Shown here: piece by piece, positions 3,601-56,793 of the stretch
Layout: each line of letters starts with the position of its first letter
Numbering within the stretch: the first letter of the stretch is position 1
Virus record (IMG/VR): IMGVR_UViG_3300044530_000662
Coordinates: 53,286-117,285 of that record
Strand: one strand, 5' to 3'
Length of the DNA: 64,000 bases
Source of the DNA: a virus
Notes under the pieces: generated by a model
Told to the model about the DNA's origin: nothing
What the model saw: the letters and a program-made list of their open reading frames with translations, nothing else
Databases searched by the model: none
Position numbers and translations under genes: made by a program

Positions 3601-6132
3601 AAGTGTTGTATCAATTACACTTAAAACTGGAGTACTGCCTGTATAGGCCATAGAAAAAGAATCAAGTAAAGCACCGCCCGATGTAAAATATCTTGTTAAT
3701 GCATTATTGTAACCTAGAGCTGGTATAAGACTTGAAGGTAAAACGTAGGGACTTACAGTATATGCAGCATTTGCAATACTTGCACCAACAATTTGAGCAG
3801 CAAAACTGACATCTCCTCCTAAGCCGGGAGTTGTATACTCAGCAGAAGTAATATCTATTTTACCTCTCATAGATATAATAGCTTCAATAAGACCTCCTAT
3901 TGAAATTACAGCAACAACAAGATCACTTAGTAATTTATTCTGTGGATGTTTGTTTGGTTCAATATATCTTTGATTAGATTGTCCTCTCAAATAACCATAG
4001 AGTTTTAATTCTGTAGATGATAAGAAAGGAGTATTAAACATAGTATCCGGAGAATGGAAACTTACCATATCCATCGGAACTGCTTGATCTAATACATTGT
4101 TATTATTACTAGGACTTGGTATTCTAATATAAGGATCCATAAAAGGTCTATCATGATTATTTCCAGACCCTGTATTAAAAAATGAGTTAATTGTATTAAA
4201 TGGATAGTTAGCATATAAGCCTGTAGTAGGGTTTGCTTGATTAACCACTTGACCTTGTATATTATATGTTCTAAAGTTATTCAACATACCTTTAGCAATA
4301 ATAGACTTGTTCCCTTCTCGGGAACCTCTTAGTATTTCATAACCTACTATACCAGGAATATCATTACCTTCATTATCTTTTGGATAAGAAATGTTTTCAA
4401 AGTATACTCCCATTAATCTAATCTTTAAAGGATTAGGTGTATAAGGAGGATTTGGTTTAAAATGATTAGTTACAGCATTAGGTGTAGTATCCGTCATGTT
4501 GTCTGGAAACTTATGATGTCTTATGGCTTGTCCACATAAATCATATTTAGTACTTTTTTTACCAAATACTCCTGTCCAACATTGATCACTAGCATTCCAT
4601 ATGTCAGGTCTATCATCAGGATATTTTTCACTAGATTCCCAATAAGCCATACGACCAACAGCAATAACAGTACCTCCATCATCAGTTACTGAACCTACTA
4701 CAGGATTACCAATAGGATCAACACTTGCTGTATTATATACTTCAAATATTTTATCATCTGGAGTTAAAGAATTTACACCATTATCATCATCATTCTCATA
4801 TGTTGGACTAGCTGATGTTGGATATCTTTCAGCAGCTCTTCCTGGAATATGATAGGATGAAGATTTATCTCCTGTATCATATACCCATCTAATAAAATAA
4901 CAGTATACTTCATCTCTTAAATAGCTTCCTTTATTACCACCTTTTACATAATAGTCTGCTGGATATTCTACGGAAGCCCACTTAGCTTGAATAAGATTAG
5001 CAAAAGGTTGATAATTAAAATCAAATTTAGAAGTAGGACCTACTCTTAGCAAGTAACTGTTTACTTCAGCTATTTGATCACACTTTTCAAACACTGGAGT
5101 TTGTAATGGTAGAAATTGTAATGGTACAGATAATAAATCTGTTATAATTTGATCTATTGCAATTCTACTAGTCTTAGTAGAATAGGTACCAATTTGTTTT
5201 GCTACTGTTCCTTGGTTAATATTCTGAACAATGACTAATTGAAATTCATCAAAGTTTTCAAAGTCTGCTTCTACATCTATTACCAAAGATCCTTGTAAAT
5301 CATTTGGATACCAGATTGGTTGTGAATTACTTGGAGAAAAATAATCTGTAACTCTTTGACCTTTAATACTATATGCAATAGTAGCAAAGTAAGTTCCGTT
5401 TCTTAATGTTCCTCCTTGATCTCCTAATCTTACTTTAAGACATGGTGTTGACATAAGTCTTGCAAGTCTTATTTTATCACAATTTAAACTAGAGTCAAAA
5501 GTAATATAATCACATGAACCTCCAGGTTTTACAAATTCATTCCATGCAACACCAGGCCATAATATTCTATTGGTACCATCAGAATAATAATTTATAGTAG
5601 GTTGACCTAACCACACATAAGGAGCTTTTGGCCATGTCTGTGGATCTCCTACATTTAAAAATCTATCTGGATTATTTGCATCAGCCCAATATACTTGCCA
5701 AGTACAATCTTCTTTTTCTCTTGCTGAACCAGATATAAGATATCTTTTATCAAATCCTAAACAAGCATCTTGAACAATAGGTCTATATGTACAGGTATCT
5801 GTTTCAAGTAAACCAATTTCTGACATAACGCTACCACCTTTAATTCCGTGACCAGCTGTAAAGATTATCCATTTATCAGAAAATAATTGTATTGCACCTA
5901 TGATGTATTTTTTTACTACACTAATAGGCATTGTTGATCCTGCTGTAATACATAAAAAGTTTGCACTCTCATTTGATATTGTACCCAAGTCACCTTCTTC
6001 TGTATTGTTTACAACATTACGGGCATGAGTCCACATACCTTCTTGTATAAAGGTAGTGTCAGCATCTTTATTTAAACCTTTAGTAAAACTACGGTTGATA
6101 ATTTGTGTTGTGTTTTGCATTCCTTTTGCCAT
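607..6132 (-). CDS. Tail stabilisation / muzzle protein (P22 gp10-like position in crAss-like phages)
   Basis: 1841 aa and beta-rich. N-terminus FTKGLNKD...WTHARN and position after the ring proteins match the crAss-like tail module as I know it. Confidence 0.7.
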   Translation of the reverse strand: MAKGMQNTTQIINRSFTKGLNKDADTTFIQEGMWTHARNVVNNTEEGDLGTISNESANFLCITAGSTMPISVVKKYIIGAIQLFSDKWIIFTAGHGIKGGSVMSEIGLLETDTCTYRPIVQDACLGFDKRYLISGSAREKEDCTWQVYWADANNPDRFLNVGDPQTWPKAPYVWLGQPTINYYSDGTNRILWPGVAWNEFVKPGGSCDYITFDSSLNCDKIRLARLMSTPCLKVRLGDQGGTLRNGTYFATIAYSIKGQRVTDYFSPSNSQPIWYPNDLQGSLVIDVEADFENFDEFQLVIVQNINQGTVAKQIGTYSTKTSRIAIDQIITDLLSVPLQFLPLQTPVFEKCDQIAEVNSYLLRVGPTSKFDFNYQPFANLIQAKWASVEYPADYYVKGGNKGSYLRDEVYCYFIRWVYDTGDKSSSYHIPGRAAERYPTSASPTYENDDDNGVNSLTPDDKIFEVYNTASVDPIGNPVVGSVTDDGGTVIAVGRMAYWESSEKYPDDRPDIWNASDQCWTGVFGKKSTKYDLCGQAIRHHKFPDNMTDTTPNAVTNHFKPNPPYTPNPLKIRLMGVYFENISYPKDNEGNDIPGIVGYEILRGSREGNKSIIAKGMLNNFRTYNIQGQVVNQANPTTGLYANYPFNTINSFFNTGSGNNHDRPFMDPYIRIPSPSNNNNVLDQAVPMDMVSFHSPDTMFNTPFLSSTELKLYGYLRGQSNQRYIEPNKHPQNKLLSDLVVAVISIGGLIEAIISMRGKIDITSAEYTTPGLGGDVSFAAQIVGASIANAAYTVSPYVLPSSLIPALGYNNALTRYFTSGGALLDSFSMAYTGSTPVLSVIDTTLEGYMAGAVAVGGVAASGSRYSYTLPDWAYLDPFSRALGATNQLLFYFSEGARTTLTLIKAFIPEDQFALQMIAHGFYDDMRRNNAANGLFRFKIEDSFYIRGNIQQVPSYYKYNNALTSYSINNLNRSDTVVIRTKAGPNYAGPLYNNVIGPNYITEPTGVSYVDQSLTTLGRLNQNGIIKTDTLANITGSSLDIPTFTKTDTPFQAPIASHYAGMKIRLGNQYGQLQGVKQIVITPCEQKFSLGQLEDTPGASTKCAACNVDTKIKRIRQSPVFFGGDTFVNRYTEKNSMFFFYDWLFGQPDGFEFNYLLRQMIPQPRFWMNSKDYDVSDLAPDFANGNTTPGTGDLPTSFYNLDYYKNSSRYYSYSSDFPIGGYPGLFRAKNANFYLACSSVRDFFVESDVLVDFRIAGDYEWEKHYNPYNYTELTRMFDIDPQNITRGNTYRYDYSLSISKLFTEYFSSGALQSPYYNPAVAKLCYTYLPDTIYYSLPQQDQSFKDSWFVYLANNYREFKSQISGVKSINKSGLFITFKNDMPQMFQGVDTLNTALGTKITIGDGGLFSQPGQSVSNADKPYEYGSSQNRLSVVSTPAGLFYVSQNQGKIFSYGEGLKEISQIGLKWWFSLFLKYKLTQHFPNYEWQDNPVAGIGIQAVYDNENSILYFCKKDYDVKPELADRVEYIPFVKECYVNSNGAAVQKGTGDYFTLDGAGRYLIGDPKLFDSASWTISYDPKNEFWISYHDWHPDLVIPTKTVFLTTKMETIWKHNFNCQQYCNYYGVNYPFEIEFPIITGQTPTVVKSFEYILECYTRASNCVDQFHVLDFNFDNAVIYNSEQVSGYLNLNIFPKNNIVLSLNYPKFNPSIPMIFTNPVTGLPSVTGVPGFDILFSKEENKYRFNQFWDVTNNRGEFPVGAGYPPQGPLVPNTTVLLGNYVQQLIWNSKPDGYTRELNLVNIDYNKAQLQRKKFRHYTHFLSLRKEISGNVNMILKTVDSKNQYSPR

Positions 6133-41435: not shown

Positions 41436-41729
41436 TTACCAAATAATAATTACATCTCCTTCATTAAGAACAAGTTTTGTCTCACCGTCAATATCAATAC
41501 GCTCAACTACTTCCATGTTTAAAGAACTTGTGCGGATGTAAACTTGATCTCCTACAGATACTTCTTCTACTTTATCACCTACTGCAAATACAGTAAGTTT
41601 GTTCCACATCTTTACAGCTTCAGCCATGATTGCTTCTTCATCCTTTGAGCTTAACTCAATAACTGATTTCTTTCTTTCAGGAATGCTTAACAAGATTGTT
41701 CTTCCTCTTAATTTTTTAAATGGTGTCAT
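41436..41729 (-). CDS. groES: GroES/Cpn10-like co-chaperonin
   Basis: KLRGRTILL...SVIEL (mobile loop region), VFAVGDKVEEVSVGDQVY, LVLNEGDVI. Confidence 0.7.
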   Translation of the reverse strand: MTPFKKLRGRTILLSIPERKKSVIELSSKDEEAIMAEAVKMWNKLTVFAVGDKVEEVSVGDQVYIRTSSLNMEVVERIDIDGETKLVLNEGDVIIIW

Positions 41730-42018: not shown

Positions 42019-42228
42019 TTATTTATTTTCTGGTTTATGGTTTGGTCCTCCTGGTTGTTGTGCTAACCATTGAACATATAACTTATCTAATGTGGTCTCG
42101 CGTGATCCAGGATATATTTCTAAAATATGAATAGGTTCCATGTAGCATTTAAAATCACTATTCTCTCTGGAGTAGCATGCAACCTCACGGCCCTGGTGTT
42201 GTACTATTTCTTTTGTATACTTACTCAT
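42019..42228 (-). CDS. Hypothetical protein
   Basis: 69 aa, operon-packed. Confidence 0.55.
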   Translation of the reverse strand: MSKYTKEIVQHQGREVACYSRENSDFKCYMEPIHILEIYPGSRETTLDKLYVQWLAQQPGGPNHKPENK

Positions 42229-42484
42229 TTACTTTATCATATGTAAGAACAAAGATATCCGGCTTACATGGATAGAACTCACCCTTAACTCCCATAATAA
42301 TATAATCTCCTACAGTAGCAGTCATTAATCCTTCTAAGGTCTGAATCTTTAACTCAGGTTCTAACTTAGCATTAGAGTAAGTTAAATAGCCTTTAGTACA
42401 AAACTTAAGAATCTCTTCTTTGTTTTTCCCAGTCCATTGAAGAGCATCAATGACAACTGGTCTTTTTACATACTTAGGCATCAT
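42221..42484 (-). CDS. Widespread phage small beta protein (KxPV..I.A.QW...TLEG...GDYII.G..GEFYPCKPDIF..TY); probable start 42484
   Basis: The family signature is complete in the sequence; function not assigned. Confidence 0.7.
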   Translation of the reverse strand: MMPKYVKRPVVIDALQWTGKNKEEILKFCTKGYLTYSNAKLEPELKIQTLEGLMTATVGDYIIMGVKGEFYPCKPDIFVLTYDKVNE

Positions 42485-42686
42485 ACTTAGTTTTAGCTGG
42501 TTTACTTTTTTTAGGATCAGTAGGAAGAGCTTCATCCAAAAGACTAATCTTAATCTTTTCTAATAAACCTACTATGGCAAGATTACCATAAGCTTCTTCT
42601 CCTACTCTGACCTCAATACCATTTTCAGTATTTGAGATACTAATTATTAACTTATTATCCATTATATATAATTGTTGGTTAGACAA
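42474..42686 (-). CDS. Hypothetical protein (probable start 42662)
   Basis: MDNKLIISISNTENGIEVRV..., downstream of the -7 promoter at 42684-42691. Confidence 0.55.
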   Translation of the reverse strand: MSNQQLYIMDNKLIISISNTENGIEVRVGEEAYGNLAIVGLLEKIKISLLDEALPTDPKKSKPAKTKYDA

Positions 42687-42700: not shown

Positions 42701-42910
42701 TTATTTATCAGCTACTCTACCAAATGTAATATTATTCTTTACTCTGATATCCTTGTGTGTAAACTGCCACATCTCTCCAGTGTCATTTAATATCACAGTA
42801 TATATAGTATCTGTCTCATGACCATAGTCTGTAACTAACCAAATAATCCCGGATCCTTTAGGTGTATTAACTTCTAGTCTATTATGTGGTTCATATATCA
42901 TAGTTCTCAA
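42701..42910 (-). CDS. Conserved small phage protein (TPKG.G...DYG.ETD)
   Basis: 69 aa. Confidence 0.6.
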   Translation of the reverse strand: MRTMIYEPHNRLEVNTPKGSGIIWLVTDYGHETDTIYTVILNDTGEMWQFTHKDIRVKNNITFGRVADK

Positions 42911-43565
42911 TTTTTATATCTTCATCTCTTGCAACTAAACTCTTATATAAATCTATATCAGTAGACCATTCTTTACCTGTCCAAAACTCAAACCCGGAAT
43001 AGTTACTCTTATACTCACAACACTTCTCATACCCACCAAGTAAATACACATACTCACATTCTAGAACTTTAGCAGTATTGCACTCTACCATCTGTGCTAT
43101 GGTACCCAGAGAAAGTTTTGGATCTTTATAATCCCATATAAACTGATATGCCACAAACTGATTCTCAAACTGTTTATAAAAACTAACTCCAATCAATTCA
43201 CCATTCCAATATTCTATAACATTACAATCAGCAAAATTATCTAAATCAATATCTCTTTTAAACCCATGATACTTACAGTACTCTTCATGCAATACTTCAT
43301 ACTTCTCTTTATTACTGATTACATTACCAGCTTGTACATATATCTTTTGACTTAACTTCTTAGTAGTCTTACTAGGTTTATACTCAGCTAGATTTATCCG
43401 GGTACTCCTTTCATTATACCATCTATCCTTCCAAGGAATCCATCCTTCCTTTAATGCATCTATAGAAGATTCATCAGAGTCAAGAATACCATAAGCACAA
43501 TTAACAATTATCTCCAAGTCACTTACTTTGCCAAAGCCTTGGATATGATCAAAGAATACTTTCAT
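42891..43565 (-). CDS. Bpt/ATE1-like aminoacyl-tRNA-protein transferase
   Basis: STRINLAEYKPSKT (ATE_N end), EKYEVLHEEY, IEYWNGELIGVS, YQFIWDYKDPKLSLGT, YVYLLGGY, CEYKSNY. These parallel Bpt F.PSRSQ, EKY.LY..Y, VEY..DG.LIAV, YTFYDP....SLGT, YLYLGYW, KM.YK. Confidence 0.75.
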   Translation of the reverse strand: MKVFFDHIQGFGKVSDLEIIVNCAYGILDSDESSIDALKEGWIPWKDRWYNERSTRINLAEYKPSKTTKKLSQKIYVQAGNVISNKEKYEVLHEEYCKYHGFKRDIDLDNFADCNVIEYWNGELIGVSFYKQFENQFVAYQFIWDYKDPKLSLGTIAQMVECNTAKVLECEYVYLLGGYEKCCEYKSNYSGFEFWTGKEWSTDIDLYKSLVARDEDIKIENYDI

Positions 43566-43569
43566 ATTG

Positions 43570-43997
43570 TAAAGATATAAAAAAACCCACTCTGTAAGTG
43601 GGTGCTCAACTTTAGGTAATGAGATTGCAAGGACTTGCCTCTGACCATATCACTCACAATTTTTGCAAGGATAAAAAACCCATGCAGTTTATATTCGTCA
43701 ATATTCTTACATGGGGGTTTGTCATAAGTTATACTTTTCAGCTTTCCTTTACACAGAAAAAGACCAGAGATGGAGCTGTGGCAGAACAGTCTCAGGTACT
43801 GTAGTACAAAGATATAAAAAAACCCAGACAGTAATTCTTGATCAATGACACTTATCTGGGTGTGTTACCAGTTATACACTTATAGATATCATGCTTTCCC
43901 GGTAACAAGAAGTCCAAGAAAAGTGAGCAGAGCTTACGGTATGCTTCCCTGGATCTGATCCTATGTTTACTCAACACAGGTGCACCTTACAAAGATA
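43570..43997 (-). ncRNA. Three tandem promoter-sRNA-terminator units (candidate small RNAs)
   Basis: -7 elements at 43990-43997, 43807-43814, 43666-43673 and 43570-43577. Each of the last three sits directly after a hairpin plus T-tract. The only ORF noticed is a 23-codon one crossing a terminator. Confidence 0.5.
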
Positions 43998-44331
43998 TAA
44001 AATTTTATAGAATTTTTAAAAGTTGTATATAAGACATGGTAGTGGGTCCTTATAAAACTTACCCCGGGGGTGCAAAACAAAGTGGTATACCCCCTACAAA
44101 TTCTACAGAGGAAGCCATACTCTAGAAAATATTTGTAAAACATTTATTTCTAGAAAAGTATTTCTATTCTACTACAAGAAGTAAGTAGTACATACTATAT
44201 TATATCTTATGTACTAATTATTAATACAAGAAGAAAGAGAGAAGGTGCTCTTGCTCACACACAAGCCAACACAAGAGAACACAGAAGACAAGCCATATAT
44301 ACAACTTCTATTGTAATATAAATTATATACT

Positions 44332-51210: not shown

Positions 51211-51295
51211 AGCAAGGTGGTGTAATTGGTAACACGGTCCTAATTTAATATGGTGAATACCAGGTCTAGTATCTGTTCAAATCAGATCCTTGCTA
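51211..51295 (+). tRNA. tRNA-like element with an aberrant, expanded anticodon arm (isotype not assignable)
   Basis: Acceptor AGCAAGG/CCTTGCT, D-arm GTGT-AATTGGTA-ACAC, T-arm ATCTG-TTCAAAT-CAGAT. The 34 nt between these arms do not form a canonical 7-nt anticodon loop; no CCA. Confidence 0.55.
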
Positions 51296-51411
51296 CAGTT
51301 GCAACAGTGCAACTTTGCCTTACCCTGACAGGAACAAAAACCTAGAGGCTTAAAAGTGGGTGACAGCTGGAAAGACAGCATTTTTTATTTATAAACTGTA
51401 ATATCAAAGCA

Positions 51412-53126: not shown

Positions 53127-53615
53127 ATGTATAAAATGGAAAAGTTAAAACAACAGATTAAAGATTATCAGTTAAATGCAGGCAAAACCTACATGAGTTA
53201 TGAAACTGATGGGTACTCACAATACCAAACATACCTTTACAAAAGAGCACTATATGGTTTAGATGCTCTAACACAACAAGAACTAGCTACTATGTGTAGC
53301 AAAAAGAAACAAAGAATAATTAATGTTTATAAAAGAGCACAAGTTGCACTTAATAAGTTTAAGCAAGAAGTTACTATACAATATAGTAATTTTATATTCA
53401 AAACTTTGTTTCCAAATAGTCCTATTACAGAATTCTTAATGGCTGATACTGAGACTGATGAGAAGTTCAAGAATACTTTAACTTTTAAAGATTTAGGCAT
53501 CAACAAAGAACAAATTATTACTATCTTTATTAATGAAGGTATCCTTCCTAAAAACTTTTTAAGTTTAGATAAGGATCCAAACAGTTTACCAAGATTAAAA
53601 ACCACTAAAAACTAA
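53127..53615 (+). CDS. Hypothetical protein
   Basis: 162 aa. Confidence 0.65.
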   Translation: MYKMEKLKQQIKDYQLNAGKTYMSYETDGYSQYQTYLYKRALYGLDALTQQELATMCSKKKQRIINVYKRAQVALNKFKQEVTIQYSNFIFKTLFPNSPITEFLMADTETDEKFKNTLTFKDLGINKEQIITIFINEGILPKNFLSLDKDPNSLPRLKTTKN

Positions 53616-56535: not shown

Positions 56536-56793
56536 ATGGAAGATATCAAAACACACAAGATTAGTATCTATAATGATGCTATTAATGAATTTGGTTATAT
56601 CATAGCTTGTTTAATTAGGTTTTGTAATCATGAACCTTTGCAGGCAGAACAATGTGCTATTATAGCAGATAATGCTGGTAAATGTCATGTAAAATCAGGA
56701 TCCTATGAAGAAATGCTTAATATTAAAACTACTTTTAAGAGATTAGATATCAAAACTAAAATTGAAGAATATGAAAATAGTAGTTTGCATTAA
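56536..56793 (+). CDS. clpS: ClpS-like N-degron adaptor (Bacteroidota type)
   Basis: HKISIYNDAINEFGYIIACLIRFCNHEPLQAEQCAIIADNAGKCHVKSGSYEE parallels Bacteroidota ClpS L.L.NDDVNTFDHVI..L...C.H...QAEQC...VH..GKC.VK.G. Confidence 0.8.
   Translation: MEDIKTHKISIYNDAINEFGYIIACLIRFCNHEPLQAEQCAIIADNAGKCHVKSGSYEEMLNIKTTFKRLDIKTKIEEYENSSLH

Follow-up and report, generated by a model that had tools for sequence, protein, structure and literature searches.

The 64,000-nucleotide stretch of viral DNA analysed here (the window) corresponds to positions 53,286 to 117,285 of IMG/VR virus record IMGVR_UViG_3300044530_000662, a record of 117,285 bp that is 99% complete according to CheckV. On its minus strand, at 42891..43565, an open reading frame (ORF) codes for a 224-aa, Cys-less homologue of the ATE/Bpt aminoacyl-tRNA transferases, recognised by Pfam ATE_C, HHalign, AlphaFold2 and Foldseek. 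With moderate confidence, we predict that this protein is an active aminoacyl-tRNA-dependent transferase of the ATE1/Bpt superfamily, belonging to a virus-dominated clade in which the metal site has been replaced and the acceptor pocket rebuilt. Such an enzyme would use a host aminoacyl-tRNA as its amino acid donor and transfer the residue to an amine, most likely that of a protein N-terminus other than the Asp/Glu termini read by Bpt and ATE1.

The limits of the ORF are exact and its start codon is ATG. The C-domain motifs quoted in a first-pass annotation of this DNA were all found between residues 152 and 186: SLGT at 152-155, YVYLLGGY at 172-179 and EYK at 184-186. In Pfam, ATE_C (PF04377) was matched over residues 109-194 at E 1.1e-8, the 36.1 bits obtained (37.7 when the genome was searched) exceeding the gathering threshold of 25. 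It was the sole family returned at E up to 10, neither ATE_N nor FemAB or MprF being detected. The Bpt/arginyltransferase equivalogs of NCBIfam scored 19-30 bits and thus missed their cut-offs of 170-358, and PHROGs gave nothing meaningful (best E 0.22). A profile of the family built from 76 members matched ATE1 chains with E 1.6e-8. When the family was compared with 11 canonical Bpt by HHalign, a probability of 98.65% and E 5e-16 were obtained over 177 columns, covering residues 31-202. No relative reaching 393 aa was recovered, which is weak evidence against fused forms. Judged on its sequence, the protein is a genuine relative of ATE/Bpt, with a similarity far above chance, but not a Bpt orthologue.

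The structure-prediction check proposed in the first-pass annotation was carried out on an AlphaFold2 model of the transferase calculated from the 76-sequence alignment (predicted local distance difference test, pLDDT, 95.9; predicted TM-score 0.90). In the Foldseek comparison with the PDB, ATE1 ranked first (human 8tzv with E 3.8e-10, then the yeast and K. lactis enzymes); the MprF C-domain, FemX and L/F-transferase came next. The VIA-align Z values were 14.9 over 210 aa for 8tzv and 14.1 over 211 aa for 7wg1, 16.0 over 147 residues for FemX (6snr), about 15 for MprF and 15.4 for 7f47, used for the FemABX/MprF comparison; tRNA-dependent peptide synthases were also among the matches (Z 13). 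ATE1 was the only protein aligned over the full length, from residue 1 to 217, including the N-terminal lobe and the GNAT core, whereas the alignments with FemX, MprF and the others were confined to the core, at about residues 38-197. Because ATE1 alone aligns over residues 1-217, the objection that another GNAT family, for instance a FemAB-like one, provides the best structural match was not borne out.

FemX, MprF and the Sba18/Sbb17 peptide synthases perform tRNA-dependent transfer to non-protein amines. It could thus be asked whether the phage protein modifies a cell-wall precursor, a lipid or a small molecule, thereby altering the envelope or a metabolite. On the GNAT core, the Z values of FemX and MprF equal or exceed that of ATE1, and the loss of the residues that recognise a protein N-terminus (see below) leaves the acceptor open. 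We nevertheless consider this explanation improbable: sequence homology was found to ATE_C and Bpt only, the N-terminal lobe aligns to ATE1 only, the transferase has neither a membrane segment nor envelope-related neighbours, and its tight linkage to a small folded protein, described below, suits a protein partner better.

For the metal site, the phage family was compared with three sets of proteins: 15 canonical proteobacterial Bpt from whole genomes (ATE_C 120-155 bits), seven cellular ATE_C proteins from the phylum of a Chitinophagaceae metagenome-assembled genome (MAG), the likely host phylum and hereafter called the host phylum (ATE_C 55-72 bits), and a more distant set of 10 proteins carrying an 'SSENRR' helix, of which two could be traced to records of the candidate phyla radiation (CPR)/Patescibacteria. 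The C.YL and CxxCxxC motifs occur together in all 15 canonical Bpt, whereas CxxCxxC is absent from all 150 representatives of the phage family. MAFFT aligns the three cysteines of this motif with positions 46, 49 and 52 of the phage proteins; the window protein has K, W and E there, and W occupies position 49 in 72 of the 76 members. HHalign alternatively places an 8-residue deletion of the phage family opposite Bpt 'RP.C..C.'. Under either alignment, all four Cys ligands of Bpt are lost from the transferase. Together with the ATE_C score above cut-off and the match to the Bpt profile, this upholds the earlier description of an ATE/Bpt-type transferase devoid of the Cys metal site and with W/Y in place of the N-terminal cluster, W49 occupying one of the Cys columns in the MAFFT alignment.

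In ATE1, the cysteines belong to a structural zinc finger, on which the stability of the enzyme and the open state of its substrate cleft depend (PMC9351520, PMC10115844). In the phage clade, aromatic packing and a shorter loop would stand in for this structural Zn/Cys site. The loss of the cysteines is not specific to phages, since neither the CPR proteins nor the cellular ATE_C proteins of the host phylum (of the GWRHFG.YFFRY or GWYRM types) have them.

Active-site residues were mapped by using canonical Bpt as a bridge to the K. lactis ATE1 (klAte1) chain, the roles being taken from published mutagenesis (PMC9351520). K304 and Y303 of klAte1 correspond to phage K186 and Y185, which are present in 75 and 66 of the 76 members, respectively, and are both invariant in Bpt; the klAte1 K304A mutant is inactive (PMC9351520). 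G41, R56, G154, Y174, Y185, K186, E193 and W200 are common to the phage family, Bpt, the host-phylum proteins and the CPR proteins. Within the phage family, G41, R53, R56, G197 and W200 do not vary, and positions 66-70 still form a basic patch on a helix. The near-universal K186, the invariant residues and the highly confident model point to strong purifying selection on the active-site positions. With its metal site lost, and also the acceptor Arg discussed below, the protein could have decayed into an inactive structural element or decoy whose sole activity is to bind tRNA or the small partner; the same conserved residues and model make this explanation very unlikely.

It had also been suggested that the enzyme shuts off the host by draining tRNA. 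Aminoacyl-tRNA would then be drained or blocked through hydrolysis or futile transfer, and the small neighbouring gene would encode an antitoxin-like regulator. The fold does bind the 3' end of aminoacyl-tRNA, and a small, tightly coupled neighbour recalls a toxin-antitoxin layout. Beyond these general features, nothing was obtained in support of the suggestion: the Lys that stabilises transfer, the other catalytic transfer residues and the acceptor-side lobe are conserved, the neighbour exists in phages devoid of the enzyme, and sequence searches of the Pfam/NCBIfam type gave no similarity to acetyl-CoA GNAT toxins. We therefore regard a shut-off enzyme as highly improbable.

The acceptor side differs from that of the characterised enzymes. 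In klAte1, N-terminal Asp/Glu is recognised by the triad R80, Y25 and Y87, the positive charge of R80 being essential (PMC9351520). The equivalent of R80 is the first R of the GFRRSG motif, an Arg in 15/15 canonical Bpt and I43 in the window protein. At this position the 76 members most commonly contain L (38), I (15), A (7), T (4) or C (3) and never a basic residue, MAFFT and HHalign being in agreement. Y25 is replaced by F11, and Y87 by W45 or Y50 depending on the alignment. Bpt lacks R53, an Arg present in every phage member and in nearly all proteins of the CPR group. Since the acidic-N-terminus triad is replaced and position 43 is never basic, the suggestion that the transferase has been respecified is backed, and we infer that its acceptor site has been rebuilt.

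On the donor side, the aminoacyl pocket of the window protein consists of A139, A157, E161 and V173, and the majority residues across the phage family are S, S, E and L/V. The corresponding pockets are S255, S273, E277 and Y289 in klAte1 and A168, A185, Q189 and L201 in the V. vulnificus Bpt (PMC9351520). Position 161, at the place of klAte1 E277, is Glu in 68 of the 76 members and represents the sole residue of the ATE1 Arg pocket that is conserved in the family. This Glu makes Arg, Lys or another basic donor plausible, if weakly indicated. The whole 117-kb genome encodes no standard tRNA, hence phage tRNAs provide no hint of the donor. Its only tRNA-like call, made by ARAGORN at 51211-51296 on the plus strand, has an undetermined two-base anticodon.

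The window also encodes a ClpS homologue (56536..56793, plus strand, 85 aa; Pfam ClpS 41.8 bits, cut-off 23), which brings in a classical N-degron writer as an explanation: the transferase would, like Bpt, add a destabilising residue to N-terminal Asp/Glu of proteins from the host or the phage, and the phage ClpS would deliver the product to the host ClpAP, in a mark-and-destroy pathway encoded by the phage. ClpS was found in 8 of 12 transferase-carrying phage records, the family-invariant R53 might replace the lost Arg, and the JGI automatic annotation labels the homologues as Asp/Glu arginyltransferases. Even so, this explanation appears rather unlikely. The R80 equivalent is I43, in a column without any basic residue, and the Y25 equivalent is Phe. 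Three phage records that are at least 90% complete (G003, G112 and G114) carry the transferase without ClpS, and in the window the two genes are 13 kb apart on opposite arms. The window ClpS reads NDA...D, whereas the other phage copies and the host copies read NDD...H. Furthermore, all seven aligned phage ClpS copies lack the N-terminal extension of about 25 aa of the host protein, the conserved C-terminal tail being present; in E. coli, this extension engages the ClpA pore (PMC9663308).

In a second search, ClpS was found in none of five records, namely four fragments of a marine lineage and the 99%-complete crAss-like phage G119. As co-occurrence is inconsistent, ClpS was rejected as an obligate partner of the transferase; the two look like separate accessory genes that are loosely associated. 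The window ClpS may have an altered specificity, or it may be a non-delivering form that blocks rather than feeds ClpAP. Among 61 genomes sampled from the host phylum, ClpS is present in 60, Aat in 57 and ATE_C in 7. The frequency of ClpS and Aat implies that the host could read and extend N-degrons without a phage reader. In a host containing both, the tag could feed the Leu/N-degron route, as an optional link.

The transferase family comprises 193 clusters at 90% identity, mostly of 224 aa and on contigs of up to 127 kb, and 158 clusters at 50% identity with E <= 1e-3; at least 537 loci were found in IMG/VR. Among 185,579 species genomes, seven matches were obtained, all in MAGs, the best being a whole-phage contig. 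No deposited phage of INPHARED was detected by megablast of the region or by tblastn with the window protein, P0190 and P0142. The family is essentially viral, and the gene is maintained across diverse phages. A 30%-identical lineage is represented by marine phage fragments of 87-139 kb with an estimated completeness of 24-39%, and their size and low completeness therefore indicate very large phages. In this lineage (L131-L197), the transferase is a lone plus-strand gene, and a conserved convergent ORF of 170-184 aa with a 'PPCPFA' motif (about 3720-4240, minus strand) overlaps its 3' end. An IQ-TREE phylogeny of 108 sequences separated the phage family and the CPR group from canonical Bpt and the host-phylum proteins, with a Shimodaira-Hasegawa-like approximate likelihood ratio test (SH-aLRT) support of 99; a phage family that is monophyletic to the exclusion of the CPR group received a support of 31 only.

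Directly downstream of the transferase, on the same strand, lies a gene for a 66-aa protein with an SH3-like small beta-barrel (42701..42901), the ATG of which overlaps the transferase stop by 11 nt. This neighbour adjoins the transferase in 81/81 loci of the viral clade. In 78 of them it is immediately downstream, the distance varying from a 10-nt overlap to a 23-nt gap and the stop codon usually being overlapped; in the remaining three, the adjacent homologue is divergent and encoded on the opposite strand. Across loci, the neighbour is 72-90% identical, with 28 invariant columns, as against 54-81% for the transferase. Its AlphaFold2 model (pLDDT 74.5) contains five strands arranged in an SH3/KOW/Tudor-like barrel, and the structural matches were generic and not specific (best Z 6.3, others 4-5). 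The neighbour matched no Pfam or PHROG family and is a member of virus-only clusters. Longer SH3-like forms of 127-148 aa (P0289-P0295) have a variable tail ending in a C...C..C...QHP-like sequence. In a complete 61-kb phage without the transferase (L219:1486-3199), the SH3-like gene is directly followed by a gene for a GroEL-like chaperonin, which hints at a role of the SH3-like protein in proteostasis.

The association was also examined in the reverse direction, by checking the 80 best partner loci for a transferase nearby. No transferase was present near the partner in 21 of them, and five phage records that are 88-100% complete (four at least 91%) contain the partner and no transferase anywhere in the record; the profile search behind this absence recovered the gene in 5/5 positive controls. 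The SH3-like protein is thus a conserved phage gene in its own right, since it occurs without the transferase, and within the clade the transferase is an accessory gene always found beside it.

Several of these observations weigh against an active transferase with a rebuilt acceptor pocket that works with the SH3-like protein. Besides the partner's occurrence alone, the adjacency of the two genes could partly reflect a favoured insertion site, and the marine jumbo-phage lineage lacks an SH3-like partner. The N-terminus of the partner varies in its first residues (MI, MM, MV, MT, MR, MK, MS); as it varies in residue and in length, the partner alpha-amine was rejected as a fixed or simple N-terminal acceptor. 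At the donor side, Glu at the 161 position is also found in 3/15 canonical Bpt, and the pocket of the window protein (A, A, E, V) is otherwise Bpt-like. Finally, the core Z values of FemX and MprF, as given above, equal or exceed that of ATE1.

The SH3-like protein is predicted to be a target, a docking subunit or a specificity factor of the transferase, a role that its constant adjacency within the clade would fit. A more detailed proposal, which we put forward as possible though doubtful, is that the transferase is the first viral N-terminal 'writer': using a host aminoacyl-tRNA, possibly Arg- or Lys-tRNA, it would tag a non-acidic N-terminus, either of the SH3-like protein or of host proteins docked by it, and proteins would thereby be re-routed into or away from Aat-ClpS-ClpAP. 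If so, an acceptor specificity new to the ATE/Bpt superfamily would have arisen, and phages would have a new means of controlling host proteolysis, a possible route for the reprogramming of host protein turnover.

To our knowledge, Aat, Bpt and ATE1 are the only enzymes known to create N-degrons by adding a residue, and they have apparently been studied in cells only; no relevant paper on phage-encoded Bpt/ATE or ClpS was found in a literature search. The clade described here is large and dominated by viruses; its members retain the catalytic core, and both the Zn/Fe-S site (thought to hold the cleft open) and the Arg specifying Asp/Glu are absent from them, which makes the clade a natural experiment on the purpose of the metal site. 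With its 224 aa, the window protein is also a compact scaffold for the tagging of N-termini. A concrete candidate for its substrate or partner is the very conserved 66-aa phage protein to which it is asymmetrically linked. The new elements of the present work are the residue mapping with its lost Arg, the phylogeny, the cellular Cys-less comparators and the independent occurrence of the partner.

The first-pass annotation had assigned to the transferase gene a host-type -7 element at 43570-43577 that would allow early expression by the host RNA polymerase. The sequence is indeed there: 43577-43570 on the minus strand reads TATCTTTA, an imperfect match to TAnnTTTG (7/8) ending 4 nt before the ATG. 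It is contained in a conserved box, TATATCTTTAC (43569..43579, minus strand), located 3 nt before the ATG, of which the window has one exact copy; the box is kept in the window phage and in L002, L003, L004, L041, L045 and L056, and is degenerate in L050. A terminator-like hairpin with a T-run, detected by a terminator scan, lies directly upstream of the box (43580..43603, minus strand). Its consensus has 8 pairs in seven phages, 3/8 with compensatory changes, and the T-run and the box are also kept; in other relatives, the transferase gene is directly behind another ORF. The claim of a host-type promoter giving early expression is weak: in addition to the imperfect box and the upstream hairpin, TTTG is absent at the -33 spacing, and TAnnTTTG is not enriched in the window (84 found, 105 expected). 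Sigma-70-like matches were near the shuffle level (15 versus 10.9), and Rfam at its gathering thresholds returned nothing in the window.

The box and the hairpin belong to a non-coding stretch of 0.77 kb (43566-44331) at the divergence of two arms, where the GC skew flips. Its minus strand contains three TATATCTTT boxes (43569-79, 43806-16 and 43989-99) and at least two modules composed of a hairpin and a T-run, possibly representing small transcripts or units of promoter and terminator.

The source of the window is an uncultured lake crAss-like phage. Its large terminase shares about 24% identity with the terminases of crAss-like phages and of Flavobacterium, Bacteroides and Cellulophaga phages, and the portal, terminase, capsid and tail genes are all on the minus-strand arm. 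A near-identical whole-phage contig of 117,852 bp was binned with the Chitinophagaceae MAG mentioned above, from Lake Mendota, and the phage ClpS closely resembles that of the phylum of this MAG; the host is likely a member of the Bacteroidota. The small-gene block downstream of the transferase cassette includes, on the minus strand, a gene matching GroES-like co-chaperonins (41436-41729; phrog_3188, E 4e-6, no Pfam match) and one for a phrog_419/MazG-like small protein (42221-42535). A 301-aa protein encoded on the plus strand at 54225-55130 matches the RNA polymerase alpha C-terminal domain above cut-off (50.6 bits) and, weakly, sigma-70 region 4; possibly, this is a phage transcription factor imitating parts of the RNA polymerase.

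Compared with known systems, the phage protein resembles FemX, the MprF C-domain and L/F-transferase in its GNAT core (Z 14-16, about 147 residues), and a catalytic Lys logic is common to the dupli-GNAT aminoacyl-tRNA transferases and the phage protein (PMC9351520). It differs from them by the lack of any match at the sequence level and by an N-terminal lobe that could not be aligned, and they act on peptidoglycan precursors, lipids or Arg/Lys N-termini. The structural similarity to the eukaryotic ATE1 enzymes (7WFX/7WG1 from K. lactis, 7TIF/8E3S from S. cerevisiae and human 8TZV) extends over about 210 residues with Z 14-15, and the equivalents of K304/Y303 and E277 are kept. The phage protein is however less than half as long, is only 13-18% identical, and lacks the variable C-terminal domain, the C4 Zn finger (ATE1 C23, C26, C95 and C96) and R80.

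The phage protein is similar in size to canonical Bpt (224 versus 232-274 aa). The Cys-less ATE_C proteins of the host phylum measure 218-264 aa, and the term 'minimal' used in the earlier description was therefore overstated. A basic 'PSK..KK' helix is common to the phage protein and Bpt, and the phage pocket A, A, -, V partly resembles the A, A, Q, L of Bpt. On the other hand, GFRRSG of Bpt has become GW[LI]P, with the loss of the acidic-N-terminus Arg, none of the four Cys remains, an invariant R53 has appeared, Glu161 takes a place that is mostly occupied by Gln in Bpt, no ATE_N match is obtained, and the phage family forms part of a separate clade (SH-aLRT 99).

The Cys-less ATE_C proteins of Bacteroidota (L092, L099-L104) resemble the phage protein in their missing Cys cluster and weak ATE_N, but they group with canonical Bpt and have mostly kept the R80-type Arg (5/7). 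Because their pocket is of the ATE1-like S/T/E/Y type and not the A/A/Q/L of Bpt, they might, from sequence, be arginyl rather than leucyl transferases. The nearest cellular relatives of the phage family are the uncharacterised Cys-less ATE_C proteins of CPR/Patescibacteria (P0260, i.e. EKD58109.1/OGM22525.1, and L089, from a Magasanikiibacteriota MAG in which no SH3-like partner was detected beside the gene). These proteins are longer (236-273 aa), have a Bpt-like 'SSENRR' helix and carry A/T/V at the Glu161 position, but they share with the phage family G[FW]LP, an R53-type Arg and the absence of Cys.

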